53,551 nt of DNA, taken from assembly GCA_016840065.1 (NCBI GenBank), contig JAEOTB010000055.1:1-53551 (forward strand). The letters run 5' to 3'. Positions 38,540 to 46,817 of the stretch are shown piece by piece. Numbering within the stretch: the stretch's first letter is position 1; each line of letters starts with the position of its first letter. The translations under genes and the position numbers were made by a program. A model generated the notes under the pieces. The model was given only the letters and a program-made list of their open reading frames with translations, did no database searches and was not told the origin of the DNA. This DNA comes from Candidatus Hermodarchaeota archaeon (GTDB taxonomy: Archaea; Asgardarchaeota; Hermodarchaeia; Hermodarchaeales; Hermodarchaeaceae).

Positions 38540-40579
38540 TCAGCGTCTTCTCCTTATCATCCATATGACTACTACCAGACCAATGATTCCTGCTACTCCG
38601 CCTCCAATAATTAGGAGCGAAATAGGATTACTACCGACGATGAATTCATAGTAGAGTCCTCCGTTATCATCGCGACCGATGTTACCCAAAACGTCTTGCG
38701 CAGCCACATAAAGCTGAACTCGTGCACCTGCTGGAAATGGGTCAAGAGTTTCTTCATAGGTGTTTCCATAAGCCAGAGTCATTAAGCGGCTCAACCATGG
38801 CCCCATATTGACACTATAGGCGACATAGATTTGTTGAATGTCAGAACCTAGTTCCTCCTTCACAACTTGAGCCGTAACATGGACACTGTCAGTACTTAGT
38901 GGTTGCATGGGAGTATAGGTTACTCCAAAGACATTGGGTATGTAGCGTAAGACCGTCACCGAAACTTCGGATGTATTAGTGAGCCCGTTGTTATCTACAA
39001 CCCGTGCCTGAATTGTAAGAGGACCCCATCCCTGCACATCCCAGAGGTAGTAATATCGAGAATTAAGTACTGAAATCTTGGTAGTACTCCAGCTACTCCC
39101 ATTCAAACTGACCAGTACATACTTTATCGGTTCTTCATCCGGATCTGTCACATTGATCCAAATGGTACAAGTTGTGCCTTGAACAAGTTCTTCAGCGGGT
39201 AAGGGCGAATCGATGATAAGGGATATCCCCCAGTCTATTAACACCGAATGCGAGGCCCGTCCAACCCAGTCAGCATCGTCGAAGATGCGAGCATGAAACT
39301 GAATCTCTCCGTACTCCTCTGTTGCATTCCAATAATAGGTGCAGTGTGTCTCGTTGAGCCCTGAGGATATGTCAAACCAGTCGCCGCCTTCAATGGAGAG
39401 TTCTACTCGACTGATGTCATCGTAATCGTCATCGAGTTCAAGGACAATGGGCACATCATCTGCCGGGTTTATGTATCCAAGCGGGGGTAGAGGGGCAACA
39501 AATGTTGCCTCGGGGAAGCCAGGTTCTGTTGACACTATTTGGGCAAAATCTGCAACCGTAGCAGCCGCTGTTTTAGCAACGAGAGTTCCCAATTCAAAAG
39601 AATAATCGAACTGACCAATAGCATCAGCAGCGCTATGAATATAGGGTTGACCCATTCCTCCTCGTTCAAAGAACCAAACGGCTGGGTAGCCTTGTTCCCA
39701 GAAGGGTGAATGGTCACTTAATACCATGTGTGGGTTAAACCATGCATTCACTGGAGCACCCACCCAGTTTTGCCCACGGTCTTCAGCCAAGGAAGCGAAA
39801 GTCCCGCTGGCACCACCGTTGTGGATGATATCAATTTTCTCGTTTTCTGGTGCATCTGGATTATTCCAGTGAATCATGTCGAAATTTACCATTGCAGCAA
39901 CTGAGATGTTTTCATAATTCAGCATCCCAGCATAAGCCTTTGACCCGAAGAGACCCTGTTCCTCCTGATTAAACGCCAGAAAGTGGATACTATAATTATA
40001 GGTATATTGGGAGAGGGCTTGAGCCATTTCCATAACTGCAGCAACTCCTGACGCGTCATCATCAGCACCCGGCGATACTAAGGGTGTGGTGTCGAGGTGA
40101 GCACCGACAACAATTACAGCGTTGTTAAGAGAGTTACCTCCAGGTAAGATGCCGACCACGTTCGGCGAACCTCCACTGAAATCATGGATTGAAACATCTA
40201 AGCCTACATCTTCGAAGAAATCAGCTATGTAATCAACAGTTTCTGCGTTGCCTGGTTGACCTGTCATCCTACTCCCGAAGGCGCTTGTCAGCGTTGTTAA
40301 GTGACGACTGTATCCAGAAGTTGTTATCCGGTCGATTATGCCTTGGATTTCTGTTGGAGCATCAATACTCTTGGCTAGGGAAATTGACGACGTGATTGAA
40401 TCAGAGGCTCTATCGTATTGGTGGTTATCAATTAATCCACTGGATGAAATCGAGTTCATCTGTGATAATGCAAGTGGATTCGAATCACTGGCTGAAAGGC
40501 CTGTTGGAGTTAATATCAAAAACCCGCAGAGCATGAGTAACAGAAGTCCAGAATGTATCCACATCTTCTTCAAGGACAA
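38540..40579 (-). CDS. Secreted, membrane-anchored M28 aminopeptidase with Ig-like domains
   Basis: GAHLD, PGADDDASG, EEQGLFGS, NFDM, SDHSPF, IHS..D. Signal peptide, beta-rich C-terminal domains, TM helix and RRRR. Confidence 0.92.
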   Translation of the reverse strand: MSLKKMWIHSGLLLLMLCGFLILTPTGLSASDSNPLALSQMNSISSSGLIDNHQYDRASDSITSSISLAKSIDAPTEIQGIIDRITTSGYSRHLTTLTSAFGSRMTGQPGNAETVDYIADFFEDVGLDVSIHDFSGGSPNVVGILPGGNSLNNAVIVVGAHLDTTPLVSPGADDDASGVAAVMEMAQALSQYTYNYSIHFLAFNQEEQGLFGSKAYAGMLNYENISVAAMVNFDMIHWNNPDAPENEKIDIIHNGGASGTFASLAEDRGQNWVGAPVNAWFNPHMVLSDHSPFWEQGYPAVWFFERGGMGQPYIHSAADAIGQFDYSFELGTLVAKTAAATVADFAQIVSTEPGFPEATFVAPLPPLGYINPADDVPIVLELDDDYDDISRVELSIEGGDWFDISSGLNETHCTYYWNATEEYGEIQFHARIFDDADWVGRASHSVLIDWGISLIIDSPLPAEELVQGTTCTIWINVTDPDEEPIKYVLVSLNGSSWSTTKISVLNSRYYYLWDVQGWGPLTIQARVVDNNGLTNTSEVSVTVLRYIPNVFGVTYTPMQPLSTDSVHVTAQVVKEELGSDIQQIYVAYSVNMGPWLSRLMTLAYGNTYEETLDPFPAGARVQLYVAAQDVLGNIGRDDNGGLYYEFIVGSNPISLLIIGGGVAGIIGLVVVIWMIRRRR

Positions 40580-40743
40580 TTACCTCAAATATATGATACC
40601 CGAGACCGTTTGTTGATTCTTTTCTTATTTCTTTCCTTTACTGCACATTCAGCGGTCAACGATTATGGTAATGGAGAGAAACCAGCCTAAATTAGGAAGA
40701 ACTATCAATATTCTGTTACTGAAGAATCTGTGAGGTGGGAAGA

Positions 40744-41973
40744 CTATACTACAGGATCTTGTGTCTCAGAATCCTCAAGGGAGGCGGATGATGTTTGAAG
40801 GAGCGTTTCTTGGAATTGGGTAAGAACATCCTTGAATCCCTTTCGCATCTTAAGAAATAGTTCGTTACGCTGGACCTCCGTTTGGTAGATGATTTCAAGG
40901 AGTTCGCTCTTCAGGAACTTCGCGATTTCCTTATAGGACTCGACTAATTCTATCATCTGATCCTTATAGGCACTGAATTCAAGGAACAAAGATGTAGCTT
41001 GAGAAGCGCCCAAAAGCATGGCTTTATGGTCGCGAAAATGGGACGCCAAGGTTCTGATGTCCAATCCTCCCTGAATCTTGTGCATCAATTCCATCATTTC
41101 TATATGAGTGAGATTAAGGAGACTTCGGAAGAGTAGATTGTGGTGCTCTTCGAATATCCAGTGAGTTCTATCATGAAGACTGACATGTTCCTTGAATTTC
41201 TGCCGTAATTTTTGGAATTCCTGTATTTTTCTGTCGAATTCTTCCATTTCTGCTATTCCAAAAAGACCTGGTGATTCGGTAAGGATGAAGGTTGGAAACT
41301 CTCGTGAATCTTTAGCGAGGAGGGATATGGCTTCAGCAACATAGTTGATGACTTCTTCGAGGCCTTCTTCTTCCATTGCGGCATTGATTGCGTTACGAGC
41401 TTCTGACTGGAGTTGGGTAGACTTCTCTGAGGTGATATAGCGAAGAACTTCGAGGAAGCCGTACATGAACTCGCTCTGAATCATTTTGTGTATTTTTTCA
41501 AGATGTGGTAGATAGGTGATAAGGGTGTGTTGAAATTTCTCCGAAATCAGTTGGTCTTCGTAGAATTGACCCAGAAACCATTTGATACCTGAGACACCCA
41601 ATTCTTTAGACTTTATGGCTTCACGGGGATTGCTAATACTCCGTACCGTTTCATCAAATTCCTTAGTTTCTGTGATTCCAACTGATGAAAACAGTGTATG
41701 TAAGCTTCGCCGTTGATTTCGATAGTAACTGTAATATGTAACTAGGTGGTCAACGAATTCATCTATACTGTGAATGATTTGACTTCCTTCAGGAATTACT
41801 AAATGGTTTCCTGTGCCATGCTTCTCCAGAAACTTTGATACTCGTGATTCTGATTTACTACTAATCTCAGCTTTGACTTTTTCGTATTGAAAGAGGTGTG
41901 TTAAATAACGGTTAAGAAGTATACAAATTTGTTCTTGAACCTTCTCATTTGTGAGTTCTTCTTCCTGGTCCAT
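40744..41973 (-). CDS. Hypothetical all-helical protein downstream of the Rab-like GTPase
   Basis: 409-aa ORF rich in E/K/L/Q, with a GAGG RBS, 18 nt after the GTPase stop. Confidence 0.75.
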   Translation of the reverse strand: MDQEEELTNEKVQEQICILLNRYLTHLFQYEKVKAEISSKSESRVSKFLEKHGTGNHLVIPEGSQIIHSIDEFVDHLVTYYSYYRNQRRSLHTLFSSVGITETKEFDETVRSISNPREAIKSKELGVSGIKWFLGQFYEDQLISEKFQHTLITYLPHLEKIHKMIQSEFMYGFLEVLRYITSEKSTQLQSEARNAINAAMEEEGLEEVINYVAEAISLLAKDSREFPTFILTESPGLFGIAEMEEFDRKIQEFQKLRQKFKEHVSLHDRTHWIFEEHHNLLFRSLLNLTHIEMMELMHKIQGGLDIRTLASHFRDHKAMLLGASQATSLFLEFSAYKDQMIELVESYKEIAKFLKSELLEIIYQTEVQRNELFLKMRKGFKDVLTQFQETLLQTSSASLEDSETQDPVV

Positions 41974-41991
41974 AGGTTTTCCTCTTTGTTC

Positions 41992-42546
41992 TTATTCGGG
42001 AGATACTGACTGACTGCTGACCATTTCCTTCTGAAGAATCAGTTCGGAAACCTTTTCGAATGTCTCTTTTACACCTTGGTCAACCTTTGCACTGGTCTCA
42101 AAATACTTCATCCCTCTCTCGTCTATCAAGGTTTCAACATCACTTGTGGTAACTTCTCGAGTATCAGTCAAGTCAAGTTTGTTACCAACCAAGATCATGG
42201 GGATGTCTTGGCTGGCATAGCGTTGAATCTGTTCTACCCATTTTTCAACGTTCAGAAAGCTTTGTCGACGAGTAAGATCAAATACTAACACAGCACCCTT
42301 TGCGCCACGATAATAAATTGGTCGAATACCTGCGTACCGCTCCTGACCTGCTGTATCCCAAATCTGGAGCTTGACAATATGTCCATTCATGGAGAGCGTC
42401 TTAACGACAAAGTCGACACCTAATGTGCTGATATATTGGTCAGTAAAAGTGCCATAGGCGAATCTTGTAGTAAGGCTTGTTTTACCGACTTCTGCATCAC
42501 CAACAAGCACTATTTTAAAGAGGTAATCGAAATTGCCATTTGACAT
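41992..42546 (-). CDS. Rab-like small GTPase
   Basis: FDYLFKIVLVGDAEVGKTSL, STLGVDF (RabF1), KLQIWDTAGQERY (RabF2/G3), YYRGA (RabF4), LVFDLT (RabF5), GNKLD, ETSAK. Confidence 0.95.
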   Translation of the reverse strand: MSNGNFDYLFKIVLVGDAEVGKTSLTTRFAYGTFTDQYISTLGVDFVVKTLSMNGHIVKLQIWDTAGQERYAGIRPIYYRGAKGAVLVFDLTRRQSFLNVEKWVEQIQRYASQDIPMILVGNKLDLTDTREVTTSDVETLIDERGMKYFETSAKVDQGVKETFEKVSELILQKEMVSSQSVSPE

Positions 42547-42617
42547 CGTGTCTTGTCCTCATCCATTTCCGAACTGAAGTTCTCAGATATCTATTCAGTT
42601 GGTAGTCACTTAAAGAT

Positions 42618-43784
42618 TTAGTTAGGATGATATTCAAAACCACGTTGAGCTTTACGCCGGCGGAGCTTGCGTAAATCATAGAGCTTCTTCAGCTCATTGG
42701 AGGCCGTTCCCTTGGCTATACCTAATTCTTCAGCTACCACAGCTGATGTAGCCTTCTTCAGCTTGTGGATTAGGGTTAATATGTCTCGCTGAATAGCTGT
42801 TATTCCTTCAGGATCGGATGCCATGAAGGAGTCAAGTTCTATTTCCCTCTCAGATTTTGTGAATCGACTCTCATCAGATGCGCTTGGTACTAGGGTGGTC
42901 TCCTCTGGTAGACTTGGTTGTTGATGAATTATCTGAAGTACATAATCGCTGGTGATTCTGTCCCCAGCTGGATTGCCATCTTGAAAGGCATCAGTAATTA
43001 TACTCTCACAGAGCCGCAGTGTAGGTCTTGGGTAACCCCTTGTATGTTTATGGATTTTATCAATAGCTCCCAGAGTGAATGGTGAGATATCAGTACCACC
43101 AAAGTATTCAATTCGTTGGCGAATCAATTCCTCTGTTTCTTCTCGTGTTAGAACTTCAATATGACCGCCAGCAACTCTTCTTTCAAGCATCATCTTGTAG
43201 GTTACCCTTTCTGCCAGTGGTCCAAAGATGTTAGTTAAGGCCTTCTGAAAACCTGTTAGTCCAGCCATAAACAGTACAACCGCAGGCGAGTCGCTGAGGT
43301 GACGAAGCCACTGTACAGTTTTTCTTTTCTCTGCGACTACTGCTTCTGAATCACCGACCTCGATAGCAAGGGTTTGACCTTCGTCGATAAGAAGAATTAT
43401 CCGGCGATGTTTCTTTATGTAGAATTCCTGAATGTTTTCTGATAAGGAATCTATGAGATCAGGTGGAGGACCACTTTCTTTCATGGTGTTCCGAGCAACC
43501 AAATTTGTCAATGCAGAACTGAGAATTCTGGTGTCGACAGGTTCGGATATCGAGCAAGGAATCATGTTGGTTGTTGTATTCAGTTTCTGCAGGAACCAGC
43601 GTAGAACATGGGTTTTTCCAGTTCCAGCTCGTCCTTCAATAAGTATGATGTTTCCAGTTCTGAGTTGTGTCATTAAGGGGGTGATGATACGTTTCTCCCC
43701 TGCGAATACTTCAGGCATTACATCTATCCTAAAGGGGAAATCCCACCAACCCAAGCTTTTCATACGCTCGTCAATGGCAAACAT
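42618..43784 (-). CDS. ExeA-like AAA+ ATPase with C-terminal winged helix-turn-helix
   Basis: LGWWDFPF N-terminal motif, GRAGTGKT, LLIDEGQ, LAERV Arg finger, TRGYPR, tail VAEELGIAKGTASNELKKLYD. Confidence 0.85.
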   Translation of the reverse strand: MFAIDERMKSLGWWDFPFRIDVMPEVFAGEKRIITPLMTQLRTGNIILIEGRAGTGKTHVLRWFLQKLNTTTNMIPCSISEPVDTRILSSALTNLVARNTMKESGPPPDLIDSLSENIQEFYIKKHRRIILLIDEGQTLAIEVGDSEAVVAEKRKTVQWLRHLSDSPAVVLFMAGLTGFQKALTNIFGPLAERVTYKMMLERRVAGGHIEVLTREETEELIRQRIEYFGGTDISPFTLGAIDKIHKHTRGYPRPTLRLCESIITDAFQDGNPAGDRITSDYVLQIIHQQPSLPEETTLVPSASDESRFTKSEREIELDSFMASDPEGITAIQRDILTLIHKLKKATSAVVAEELGIAKGTASNELKKLYDLRKLRRRKAQRGFEYHPN

Positions 43785-43867
43785 AACATCAGTTCTCCTT
43801 ACCTGGATGGTTCACCACTGGTTGGGTTCGAGTTCATCACCTTGTTTGTGTTAGATAGGTTCGCACC

Positions 43868-44149
43868 CTAGCTTTCAGCTAAGGCTACATCTCCTAATCG
43901 TCCGAGTTGATCGTTGTAGCTAAAGGCACAACACACATTCCCTCCTCCATTATTGAAAGTCGAATCCTCCTCTCTGTTCGTTTCGCAGAGATATATGCAG
44001 TAGCTAGTATTCACGAGATTTCCAGAACGTCGACACACAATCATTTGTGATGTTGGAGCAATTAAATCTAGGACAGAATCCTGTGAATGGAGTATCTGGG
44101 ATGTTTCGAGCATAAACCTTGGTCGTACTATTTTTGATTTCTCAATCAT
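43868..44149 (-). CDS. Small Cys-containing hypothetical protein
   Basis: Strong RBS GGTGAGG. C-x11-C-x3-C...CC pattern. Confidence 0.7.
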   Translation of the reverse strand: MIEKSKIVRPRFMLETSQILHSQDSVLDLIAPTSQMIVCRRSGNLVNTSYCIYLCETNREEDSTFNNGGGNVCCAFSYNDQLGRLGDVALAES

Positions 44150-44280
44150 TTATCCTCACCTTCCTTGTGACTAGCGTAGATTATCCGTTTAGGGCTCCTG
44201 AATGAGCTGTGTTTGGCCTGTTCAGAGATTTTGTTTGCAAGCTCGTAAAATACCCTTATTTTTCCTTTTTGGAGCCCCAT

Positions 44281-44320
44281 AACATCATTCAACTTCATTA
44301 AACTTCATTCAGGTTCATTA
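44281..44320. repeat. Four tandem 10-bp imperfect repeats (consensus AACTTCATTM)
   Basis: aacatcattc aacttcatta aacttcattc aggttcatta, in the intergenic region upstream of the Cys protein/AAA/Rab genes. Confidence 0.8.
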
Positions 44321-44555
44321 AAGATATTTAGAACCCTATAAAGCTTCCTATCTCCTTGGGGATTTCTCTCTAGCCCCCCATAAATTGCCTGTTACATTAA
44401 TTATTTCATTCTGAAAGAAATTATTCCTAAACGGTGTTAATGCCCGAAATCCCTTTTTCAGTACGGAAAAGCCTTCATTTCCCCATATTGAGAATTTGGT
44501 CGGTCATTTTGCGTTCCAATGAAATGGAATGAACATCCCCTACAATCAACCCCAT

Positions 44556-45608
44556 CTAATCGAGGAGAGATACGGAAAGAGGACCAGAGGATGAGCCAAA
44601 CTCTTCGTGGAGATATCTCAGAAGTTCAAACCGTTTAGGGTTTAGGTGTAAAAGTGACTGTATATCATCAAGCGAGAGGTGAGGTGAATGTTTCCGGAAA
44701 CTTATGAAGTATCTAAGATCCTTTATCAACTCTCTGAGTTGAAACTCCAAGAATTGCCCTTGCTCGGAGAGAGATTCGCTGAGGGCTAAGGATGTTTTTG
44801 CTATATTCATCTGAAACTGGTTTGGAGGAGCCTGATACCAACACCCACCATCAGGGTCACACCTCAAGAAGAGGTAATGATCAATATACTCGGGGACTAC
44901 CATGTTCTTGAAGACTTTTTCAGTGACACCGAGGAGCGTGGATGTCTTGTGAACTTGGTGCTTACGACTCTGAAGGATTCCCCTAGTAATCTCCATATCC
45001 GTTATTGCATCCATGTGAGGGATTTTGAAGGGGAGCAACTCGTCTAGGGATTCCCTTAGTCTTGTGATATGTTCATCGCTGCAACAGACTATCACAGCTG
45101 AACCGATGAGTATATTCAAGAGAAGAATATCGAGAACTTCCCCCATAGAGCTGAGCAGGAACTCTGCAGAGGTTAGTTCTTGTTTTTCAGCTTCAAATCG
45201 AGTGTTGTGTGCAGCAAGGGCCTGTTGGATTGTTGGGATGAATTTTTCAAACATCCGGGTCCCGCCATCCCACCTTGCTAAGATGTCCTCGAATTTGTTT
45301 AGAAAGAGGACATTTAGACTGTGAAGAACCGCCTGTACTTCAAGCACATCTGCACCTGAATCGGCTAATCCTACAGTGATGATATCCTGCAAGGCGTCAT
45401 AATGGAACCGGTAAACACCAGCTTCGATGGTGCGAATTTCTTCGTCAATTGCCTCATGACCGAACTCCCTAATCGCAGTTAACAAACCTGTCAAGATTGT
45501 CTGGTCAAGCTTCACGACTGGTGAGAGAACAGAAACAAGGTTTTCACCAGAACGGAGAAAGATGAACACAGAATGGATTTTACTTGACAGGGTAACACCC
45601 CTCACCAC
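44556..45608 (-). CDS. Longin-domain protein with probable DENN/folliculin-like C-terminal region
   Basis: N-terminal IHSVFIFLRSGENLV...LTGLLTAIREFG...IRTIE longin pattern. Downstream LNILIGSAVIVCCSD...LDELLPF...LLGV resembles the cDENN core. Confidence 0.7.
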   Translation of the reverse strand: MVRGVTLSSKIHSVFIFLRSGENLVSVLSPVVKLDQTILTGLLTAIREFGHEAIDEEIRTIEAGVYRFHYDALQDIITVGLADSGADVLEVQAVLHSLNVLFLNKFEDILARWDGGTRMFEKFIPTIQQALAAHNTRFEAEKQELTSAEFLLSSMGEVLDILLLNILIGSAVIVCCSDEHITRLRESLDELLPFKIPHMDAITDMEITRGILQSRKHQVHKTSTLLGVTEKVFKNMVVPEYIDHYLFLRCDPDGGCWYQAPPNQFQMNIAKTSLALSESLSEQGQFLEFQLRELIKDLRYFISFRKHSPHLSLDDIQSLLHLNPKRFELLRYLHEEFGSSSGPLSVSLLD

Positions 45609-45731
45609 TGATTTGCCTAGAGCGATAAGAGATTAAAGTGTTTCTTACATGCTTTTACTGGAGCTTCTTTGAGTTACCCCTTTAATTTATAAAGATTATC
45701 AACTTGCTGTTGATACTGAAGGACAATAGAG

Positions 45732-46817
45732 GTGCATACTGTGACAATTGACAGAATTCTGAAGACCTTAGAAGAATTATCCGAAGCTATAGGAGTCTCT
45801 GGTTTTGAAAAACCTCCTCGTGACATGATTCAGGAGGAAATCAAGGATTTGGTTGATAAGGCTTGGGTAGACCCCCTGGGGAACCTACTAGCTATCCGCA
45901 AGGGTGAGACAAAACACCCTCGCATCCTGCTAGACGCCCATGTAGACGAAATCGGTTTCATAATCACACATGTAGATAAGCGAGGATTCCTTCGAATAGC
46001 CCCATTAGGAGGATGGGACCCAAGAACACTACCTGGGCAACGAGTCATCATTCAACCCCACGCCATTAAGGAGAAATACCCTCCACCAGTTTTCGGTGTC
46101 ATCACTGCGATGCCACCACACCTGACTTCACCAGAACAGCGAAGGAAGGTCATTCAGATAGAAGAACTCTTAGTCGATATCGGCGTAACCTCATTTGACG
46201 AAGCAAAGGAGAAGGGAGTAGTGATGGGTGTTCCTTTAACCGTGTGGCAGCCCTTCATGAGGCTCAGCGATGACTCGCTAACCGGTAAAGCATTCGATGA
46301 TCGTGTGGGCTGCACTATTCTGGTTGAAACCTTACGGCGTTTAGAGGAGGCCAAGAATAGGCAAGCGACTGTGGTCTTTAACTTTGCAATGGCAGAAGAG
46401 GTGGGAGCACGAGGAGCCAGGACTGGTGCTTATACGTTAGAACCTGATGTTGCACTTGCCCTAGAGTGTACCACTGCAGCAGATATACCAGACGTTCCAG
46501 ATCACAAATCACCTACTCGTCTTGGTGAGGGACCAGCAATAACCTTAGCCGATCGCTCTATGATCGCTCATCCCAAGGTGGTCTCCACTCTTCAACGCGT
46601 CGGAGAGAAGGAAAAGATAAGACATCAGGTGAAGAAGCCGATAATTACCGGCGGAACAGATGCGGGGCAAATTCATGTGACAAGGGGAGGTGTTCCCTCA
46701 GGGGTTGTTTCAGTTCCCTCCCGCAACATTCACTCAGCAGTTTCTGTAATTCGGCTCTCCGATATGGTCGCTGCCGTTGACCTTGTTTATGGCTTCATAC
46801 AAACTTGGAAAGAATAG
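45732..46817 (+). CDS. M42 (TET/FrvX) aminopeptidase
   Basis: GVSGFE, DAHVDEIG, GKAFDDRVG, EEVGARGA, GGTDAG, RNIHS. Confidence 0.93.
   Translation: MHTVTIDRILKTLEELSEAIGVSGFEKPPRDMIQEEIKDLVDKAWVDPLGNLLAIRKGETKHPRILLDAHVDEIGFIITHVDKRGFLRIAPLGGWDPRTLPGQRVIIQPHAIKEKYPPPVFGVITAMPPHLTSPEQRRKVIQIEELLVDIGVTSFDEAKEKGVVMGVPLTVWQPFMRLSDDSLTGKAFDDRVGCTILVETLRRLEEAKNRQATVVFNFAMAEEVGARGARTGAYTLEPDVALALECTTAADIPDVPDHKSPTRLGEGPAITLADRSMIAHPKVVSTLQRVGEKEKIRHQVKKPIITGGTDAGQIHVTRGGVPSGVVSVPSRNIHSAVSVIRLSDMVAAVDLVYGFIQTWKE

Follow-up and report, generated by a model that had tools for sequence, protein, structure and literature searches.

Asgard genomes encode dozens of Rab-, Rag- and Arf-like GTPases together with dozens of longin and Roadblock proteins, and their gene layout almost never tells which regulator belongs to which GTPase (Tran et al. 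2024, PMC10933270). A predicted Asgard operon has been reported that combines a LAMTOR1-like Roadblock protein, a Rab-like GTPase and a DENN-domain protein, along with folliculin-like longin-DENN proteins in Heimdallarchaea (Liu et al. 2021, bioRxiv 10.1101/2020.10.19.343400), and longins of the folliculin/SMCR8 type are known from Asgard archaea (2025 study, PMC12290439). Here we describe a five-gene locus from Hermodarchaeota that combines a predicted longin-DENN protein with a Rab-like GTPase, an AAA+ ATPase carrying a winged helix and a set of phased DNA repeats. It lies on contig C30 (53,551 nucleotides (nt); "the window" in what follows is this whole stretch) of a 2.59-Mb metagenome-assembled genome from marine sediment (G000, 84% complete). 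We rate the chances as about even that this is a Hermodarchaeota-specific locus of two units: the gene for a longin-DENN regulator, and a repeat-controlled four-gene operon for a 4-Cys protein, the AAA+ winged-helix protein, a cytosolic Rab-like switch and its helical partner.

The five open reading frames (ORFs) are consecutive and lie on the minus strand, as an earlier note made from the DNA letters had read them. From the DENN-fold gene to the gene for the helical protein the intergenic gaps measure 406, 83, 71 and 18 nt, matching the close spacing of 18-83 nt that the note had given for the last four genes. Features are listed below in the direction of transcription, with distances in nt or base pairs (bp).

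44556 to 45608, minus strand: gene for the predicted longin-DENN fold protein (350 amino acids (aa), P0005), with a GTG start; candidate small-GTPase regulator with its own predicted promoter.
44150 to 44555, minus strand: conserved regulatory spacer with TATA box, phased repeats and distal element.
44518 to 44533, minus strand: distal element of two inverted TTCATT copies, 10 bp apart; the AATGACCGAC box comes next.
44337 to 44342, minus strand: TATA box TTTATA, as read from the sequence.
44281 to 44320, minus strand: four copies of AATGA(A/T), phased at exactly 10 bp and beginning 17 nt after the TATA box.
43868 to 44149, minus strand: gene for an acidic 4-Cys microprotein (93 aa), the first gene of the putative operon in the window's genus.
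42618 to 43784, minus strand: gene for a 388-aa AAA+ ATPase (P0003) of the ExeA-like kind (Pfam AAA_22), with a probable winged helix of the MarR type (MarR_2, below cut-off).
41992 to 42546, minus strand: gene for a Rab-like small GTPase (184 aa, P0002; Pfam Ras, G1-G5 intact).
40744 to 41973, minus strand: gene for an orphan all-alpha acidic protein (409 aa, P0001), starting 18 nt past the GTPase stop.

Since each of the five ORFs has orthologues in related genomes, and the 93-aa frame moreover shows a constant length and invariant cysteines, all five are real, conserved genes. A transmembrane helix was found in none of the five proteins, in line with the earlier note: the sole strongly hydrophobic 19-mer, residues 158-176 of the 350-aa protein, is buried by the structural model in the core of the alpha/beta domain. 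An Rfam scan of positions 40500-45900 gave no match at E ≤ 1. The stretch is contained in four DNA sequencing runs from one marine-sediment study, with no RNA run among those listed. In the genome as a whole, small GTPases are encoded by 24-28 genes and longin domains by at least 16, numbers typical of Asgard archaea.

The most telling new result comes from the 406-nt spacer, in which, read along the minus strand, the TTCATT pair is followed by the AATGACCGAC box, an AT-rich stretch, the TATA box, the phased repeats and a leader of about 130 nt, the latter with a conserved GGTGAGGA ribosome-binding site ahead of the 93-aa gene. These elements are kept at equal distances in both genera of the family (g1 and g2). 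The 2.59-Mb genome has no second site with three phased AATGA copies, against an expectation of 0.008. The spacing of the repeats with respect to the TATA box suggests that they span the transcription start. The spacer presents a well-defined and apparently undescribed regulatory DNA element, and, judged by its sequence, the locus would consist of two transcription units, the DENN-fold gene and a putative four-gene operon. A 50-aa ORF at 44146-44298, overlapping the start of the 93-aa gene, was rejected as a gene in the window's genus, given its stops and indels in a sister genome. Downstream of the repeats, genus g2 and a lineage from hydrothermal sediment do carry a conserved basic ORF, 67 aa long, which overlaps the start of the 93-aa gene by 4 nt (L039 10354-10557, plus strand; L072 7383-7586). 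In the relative G005 the spacer is widened to about 3 kb by an insert with a 479-aa TnpB/OrfB-like gene whose product has a C-terminal zinc ribbon (L032 5964-7403, minus strand).

A candidate binder of these repeats, the 388-aa ATPase, matches Pfam AAA_22 at 1.3e-11 (45.3 bits against a cut-off of 27) and, over residues 327-379, MarR_2 (PF12802) at 4e-5, with 24.1 bits below the cut-off of 27. A PDB search with the single sequence gave no match; the family profile retrieved just generic AAA+ and MarR-type chains, namely MarR/ZitR chains at E-values of 7e-4 to 3e-3, ORC1 (over the AAA+ module) and clamp-loader chains. NCBIfam TIGR03015 aligns to residues 45-271 at 1.2e-16, with 61 bits against an equivalog cut-off of 324.5, and the source annotation reads 'predicted ATPase ExeA'. 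The family alignment shows a W..FPF motif, Walker A GxxGxGKT, Walker B LLIDEGQ (LLIDDGQ in genus g2) and GYPR, followed by a linker and the winged helix; W13, P17, F18, G54, G56, K57, D134, G250, P252 and R253 are invariant. By these sequence criteria the protein is an ExeA-type AAA_22 ATPase with a C-terminal winged helix that is probably of the MarR type, and the description of an ATPase with a winged helix in the earlier note is supported. The P-loop region also has weak, sub-threshold matches to nSTAND6, NACHT and NB-ARC. An Orc1/Cdc6 identity was considered and rejected, as the TIGR02928 and PRK00411 models score 15-19 bits against cut-offs of 181-501; a genome-wide TIGR02928 search found a canonical Orc1/Cdc6 gene above cut-off on contig C61 and did not list the 388-aa gene. 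Searching the genome with the 388-aa family returned two other loci only.

The closest relatives of the ATPase outside its own family, 35-39% identical, are found in Borrarchaeum weybense, B. yapensis and Sifarchaeum marinoarchaea. In these three genomes, arrays of a similar repeat type (AATGGAGTT, AATGCAGTT, AATGTAGTT) are located just upstream of the ATPase orthologue, whose gene is in divergent orientation to two stand-alone longin genes. The doublet AATGNAGTT-N1-2-AATGNAGTT occurs once in the 2.59 Mb of the window's genome (G000), in the promoter described here, and twice in the complete 4.2-Mb genome of B. weybense (G056), where both copies precede the gene of the ATPase orthologue; a control with the pattern reversed had 0 hits. 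A gene of this ATPase family stands beside longin genes in two distant Asgard lineages, a suggestive arrangement that counts as just two independent observations. Upstream of the Borrarchaeum orthologue (L049 8405-8450), a strong GC-rich hairpin with a T-run precedes the TATA box and the first repeat array, and no plus-strand gene is evident upstream of this hairpin. Kinship of a 251-aa protein encoded downstream of the Borrarchaeum orthologue with the 409-aa or 350-aa families was rejected, the hhalign probability being below 1%. In Borrarchaeota-type genomes, a more distant AAA_22 winged-helix subfamily is encoded at the front of an operon that also includes genes for an ABC transporter ATPase and for a membrane protein of about 545 aa (L050 5300-8866, L052 40-3824, L053 1580-5156).

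The GTPase matches Pfam Ras at 1.3e-60. Rab, Ypt and Sec4 proteins account for every one of the best 60 PDB matches listed, with Rab1A/B at the top (Rab1A, 3.8e-53). The motifs G1-G5 are intact, with GDAEVGKTS, Thr41, WDTAGQE (including Gln68), GNKLD and ETSAK invariant across the orthologues. The RabF motifs, reportedly defined by Pereira-Leal and Seabra in 2000, are intact in four of five cases (LGVDF, KLQIWDTAGQE, YYRGA and LVFDLT), RabF3 being divergent (RYAGIR). That the protein is Rab-like with recognizable RabF motifs had been claimed before and is confirmed, as is the absence of a C-terminal cysteine for prenylation: the chain ends in ...VSSQSVSPE, and since it contains no cysteine anywhere it has no prenylation site; none of six aligned orthologues has a C-terminal cysteine either. 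Other Asgard Rab-like proteins likewise lack it (Tran et al. 2024, PMC10933270). Its orthologues, 64-80% identical, are restricted to the window's own family (f1), and the best matches elsewhere reach at most 52%. On contig C56 of the same genome (10579-14975; L005, L006, L008), four tandem Rab-like GTPase genes and two interleaved longin-like genes (271-272 aa) share one strand, a cluster denser in GTPase and longin genes than the locus under study.

For the 350-aa protein we obtained an AF2 model from an alignment of 30 orthologues and paralogues, with a pLDDT of 81. Residues 8-141 adopt a beta-beta-alpha-beta-beta-beta-alpha topology in the model and superpose on the longin domain of Sec22b with a Z of 15.8 and a root-mean-square deviation of 2.3 Å over 124 residues (VIA-align). 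The alpha/beta and helical remainder, residues 144-350, aligns over 177-183 residues to DENND10 (Z 12.8), to the C-terminal domain of FLCN (12.4; 3v42) and to DENND1B (11.5). The top full-length Foldseek matches were FLCN (6nzd_H), DENND10, C9orf72, DENND1B and FNIP2, with a probability of 1.00. At the level of the predicted fold, the protein has a longin (uDENN) + cDENN + dDENN architecture, and the label 'DENN-like' that the earlier note had given it is borne out to that extent by the Z of 15.8 for the longin and 11.5-12.8 for the DENN matches. In Pfam at E ≤ 0.1 it is unmatched save for a spurious Rad17 hit, NCBIfam yields no match, and its 30-sequence family profile retrieves no DENN or folliculin chain from the PDB at E ≤ 10.

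Whether such a protein would be a guanine nucleotide exchange factor or a GTPase-activating protein (GAP) can be approached through its longin domain. In the GAP-type longins of FLCN, NPRL2, SMCR8 and C9orf72, the beta1-beta2 loop ends with a characteristic Gly-Pro motif (Traffic 2025, PMC12290439). This position reads R-S-G-E-N in the 350-aa protein, and the motif is absent: Gly21 is invariant in the family alignment, and the next residue is Glu (Leu in the paralogues), never Pro. An exchange-factor role is slightly favoured over a GAP role by the lack of this motif and by the catalytic Gln that the GTPase itself retains. The catalytic arginine finger of the FLCN longin domain is Arg164; in the longin domain of the 350-aa family, Arg47 is invariant and Arg67 nearly so. 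Complex prediction for the protein and the GTPase, both supplied as alignments, scored 0.07 against a mark of 0.32, a result that is evidence neither way.

Among 60 relatives searched, full-length orthologues of the 350-aa protein belong to family f1 only, where two paralogues occur per genome, and the longin domain alone has relatives phylum-wide in many architectures. The only paralogue in the window's genome is a 347-aa protein, 27% identical, encoded at C16:20300-24040 (L042 8301-12041), with no GTPase gene within 8 kb; it is followed by a 180-aa gene of no recognized kind, a 128-aa Roadblock/LC7 gene and a gene with a NERD/Mrr-like nuclease domain. In another Asgard family (f2), a longin domain of the 350-aa type is joined to a GTPase-like domain in proteins of 298 aa (L045 7661-8557 and L048 8136-9032, both minus strand). 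By the look of their sequences, the neighbours of these fusions include two ESCRT-III-like genes and one Vps4-like gene.

The two remaining products of the putative operon have no match in Pfam, NCBIfam or PADLOC. The acidic microprotein is exactly 93 aa long in 10 of 10 orthologues examined, at 34-61% identity, and its four cysteines (C39, C51, C55 and C74) are invariant, a pattern from which we expect that it probably binds metal. Distant relatives of its cysteine core occur in one other Asgard family (f18), none of them with GTPase, AAA+ or longin neighbours. These proteins of 75-104 aa share the core VDGGYC..FC ... C and are found in 2-3 copies per genome in unrelated neighbourhoods (e.g. 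L066 6817-7044, minus strand), forming a small unnamed 4-Cys domain family. The acidic 409-aa protein, an orphan, is very narrowly distributed: an exhaustive HMMER search among 1.84 billion representative proteins found 6 clusters, all of them orthologues. Its AF2 model (pLDDT 83, pTM 0.71) is all-alpha with long helices, and gave nothing in Foldseek against the PDB at E ≤ 0.001; the best VIA-align value in a wide search, a Z of 10.7 to designed helical bundles, is under the noise level for helical proteins, and the ESM Atlas returned nothing either by features (0.77) or by shape (TM ≤ 0.38). Of the 'helical effector' proposed in the earlier note, the all-helical character stands as a prediction, whereas the effector role was overstated, the protein being absent from the relative G004; we regard it as a candidate partner or effector of the GTPase.

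The order of all five genes is shared by genera g1 and g2, and it recurs in a more divergent third lineage, which comes from hydrothermal sediment. The proteins of these three sub-lineages are only 35-65% identical, and the four downstream genes are always contiguous with short gaps. Of the 16 longin ORFs considered in the window's genome, 5 have a GTPase ORF within 6 kb, compared to about 12% expected by chance, a moderate enrichment of longin genes next to GTPase genes. Next to the locus, at window 38540-40579 on the minus strand, a 679-aa M28 peptidase with Ig-like domains and a weak match to a prokaryotic YEATS domain is encoded; its gene is missing from the otherwise syntenic locus of the hydrothermal lineage (L072).

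Based on these results, a mechanism can be proposed in which the ATPase, probably oligomeric, would contact the phased repeats through its winged helix, each helical turn taking up one protomer. As the array seems to cover the transcription start, the ATPase might control its own four-gene operon and, most likely, repress it; repression is the usual effect of archaeal regulators that sit immediately downstream of the TATA box. The non-lipidated Rab-like GTPase would act as a cytosolic switch with the helical protein encoded 18 nt downstream as its partner, and the longin-DENN protein would set the nucleotide state of this GTPase or of another of the approximately 28 small GTPases in the genome. 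All links among the proteins of the locus are ones that we infer, and the idea of a functional connection draws on the longin-type/GTPase-like fusions in another Asgard family and on the published Asgard linkage of DENN and Rab-like genes (bioRxiv 10.1101/2020.10.19.343400). A broader proposal extends this mechanism to an ancestral Asgard module, present in Hermodarchaeota and Borr-/Sifarchaeota, of phased AATGnAGTT repeats, an ExeA-like AAA+ winged-helix protein and longin proteins, in which longin/small-GTPase signalling would act directly on the DNA-bound ATPase oligomer as a switch from GTPase to gene expression instead of membrane traffic, the Rab-like GTPase, the DENN domain and the private effector having been recruited in Hermodarchaeota. 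This we hold to be rather doubtful.

Several observations weigh against a functional unit of the five genes, some of them in favour of a rival view in which these are neighbours by descent, with the ATPase as an ordinary local transcription factor of its own operon, the longin-DENN protein serving other GTPases, and no pathway shared by the five. Synteny in the same genomes extends to the entire neighbourhood, including M42 and M28 peptidases, PNPOx-like genes, a GH35 glycosidase, a radical SAM enzyme and a kinase. The synteny check proposed by the earlier note therefore has a divided outcome: gene order is indeed conserved in three sub-lineages, but with housekeeping flanks equally syntenic this alone is no proof of a functional unit, and the conserved order may just reflect common descent. 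The DENN-fold gene has a TATA-like box of its own near 45686-45693, and in G005 the spacer between it and the putative operon tolerates the insertion of a TnpB-type element. G004 keeps the rest of the cluster without the 409-aa protein. No GTPase gene turned up in the 7-18 kb examined at the Borrarchaeum and Sifarchaeum loci, and ATPase relatives at 25-29% identity sit in front of ABC transporter genes, as fits a generic local regulator; upstream of these relatives, no phased repeats of this type were found. The DENN assignment derives solely from predicted structure, sequence profiles giving it no support, and in Asgard archaea GTPase genes are generally not in operons with candidate regulators (Tran et al. 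2024, PMC10933270). Finally, full-length or orthologous members of the five protein families come, among the genomes searched, from a single family-level lineage, leaving few independent observations. Against mere descent speak the four operon genes, which remain contiguous at short distances despite the divergence of their proteins, the ATPase gene, which adjoins longin-domain genes in two distant families, and the moderate enrichment of longin and GTPase genes as neighbours. We consider it possible, though on the whole unlikely, that the five genes are unconnected.

Two further explanations concern the nature of the ATPase. An AAA+ module followed by a winged helix, whose family profile aligns to ORC1 over the AAA+ part, could be an initiator-type protein that assembles, in the manner of Orc1/Cdc6 origins or plasmid iterons, on phased and inverted repeats to either side of an AT-rich core, and the spacer does offer 10-bp-phased direct repeats with inverted copies some 200 bp off across an AT-rich stretch. 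Yet the Orc1/Cdc6 models remain far under their cut-offs, a canonical Orc1/Cdc6 gene is found on another contig, and the 388-aa family has just two other loci in the genome; the locus is chromosomal and syntenic, with no flanking mobile-element genes, and the repeats, 17 nt past the TATA box and directly before the operon, are in the position of an operator. An origin-like or iteron element is thus extremely improbable. Alternatively, the ATPase could be a STAND-like NTPase that, together with the GTPase, controls the helical protein as the effector of a conflict or defence module, an idea compatible with the sub-threshold P-loop matches mentioned above, with the very narrow distribution of the effector-like 409-aa orphan, and with a G+C content of 0.42-0.44 over window 40000-46000 compared to 0.46-0.48 in the flanks. 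PADLOC, however, found no significant match for the five proteins (the best, 2.9e-5, covers 36 P-loop residues), no nuclease, protease or toxin domain was found, and the genes, each present once, show a stable synteny between genera instead of a patchy distribution, which makes a defence function very unlikely. The two-unit locus with a repeat-controlled operon remains the reading that we prefer.

The locus offers a small set of proteins for study: a DENN-fold protein, a Rab-like GTPase, a helical partner and a DNA-binding-type ATPase with a defined candidate DNA site. If the DENN-fold protein proved to act on the GTPase, a DENN-type regulator at work outside eukaryotes would be documented biochemically. 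Should the ATPase bind the repeats and respond to the GTPase or to longin proteins, eukaryote-like switches would be used here in gene control, not in membrane traffic, which would bear on the pre-eukaryotic roles of switch proteins.

How, then, does the locus compare to systems already known? The claim of an 'undescribed system' in the earlier note was too strong, given that both the linkage of DENN and Rab-like genes and folliculin-like longin-DENN proteins have been reported in Asgard archaea (bioRxiv 10.1101/2020.10.19.343400). As in the operon of Liu et al., a DENN-fold gene is found near the gene of a Rab-like, non-Rag GTPase, and the combination of longin and DENN matches folliculin. 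Unlike there, no Roadblock gene accompanies them: Robl_LC7 is present at 14 loci in the genome, with 0 on contig C30 and none among the five proteins. The DENN-fold and GTPase genes share a strand here but lie 2.0 kb apart, with two genes and the 406-nt promoter-bearing spacer between them, and the cluster adds genes for the AAA+ winged-helix, 4-Cys and helical proteins. Moreover, the Pfam DENN and folliculin models miss the 350-aa protein, and the cluster is confined to one Hermodarchaeota family among the genomes searched.

With DENND1B-Rab35 (3tw8), DENND10 (8p0v), FLCN-FNIP2 (6nzd, 3v42) and C9orf72-SMCR8 (7mge), the 350-aa protein shares the predicted three-part fold, with about 300 residues aligned. 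It is, however, just 350 aa long, at 10-14% identity to eukaryotic DENN modules in structural alignments; Ser-Gly-Glu replaces the Gly-Pro of the GAP-type FLCN, C9orf72 and SMCR8 longins, and the neighbouring GTPase, in contrast to eukaryotic DENN targets, has no prenylation site and no evident membrane link. The cluster resembles MglA/MglB pairs in that a prokaryotic small GTPase gene stands near a candidate regulator of the longin/Roadblock class, but the GTPase is Rab-like, not MglA-like, and the regulator would be a longin-DENN protein, not a Roadblock dimer.

The ATPase has the W..FPF, Walker A, Walker B and GxPR motifs in common with AAA_22 ATPases of the ExeA/GspA type (COG3267; TIGR03015, XrtA/PEP-CTERM-associated), from which it differs by a C-terminal winged helix, probably of the MarR type, in place of a membrane or peptidoglycan-binding domain and by the absence of secretion or exopolysaccharide genes nearby. 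Archaeal Orc1/Cdc6 at ORB-repeat origins is similar in the order of AAA+ module and winged helix and in the direct and inverted short repeats about an AT-rich stretch, and dissimilar in that its family models fail on the 388-aa protein, its true gene lies elsewhere in the genome, and the repeats here are in operator position after the TATA box. A literature search found no paper combining 'Asgard' and 'ExeA'. We conclude that the locus is a lineage-specific variant of the reported Asgard DENN/Rab-like arrangement; new here are the promoter with its phased repeats and the link between repeats, ATPase and longin genes across lineages.

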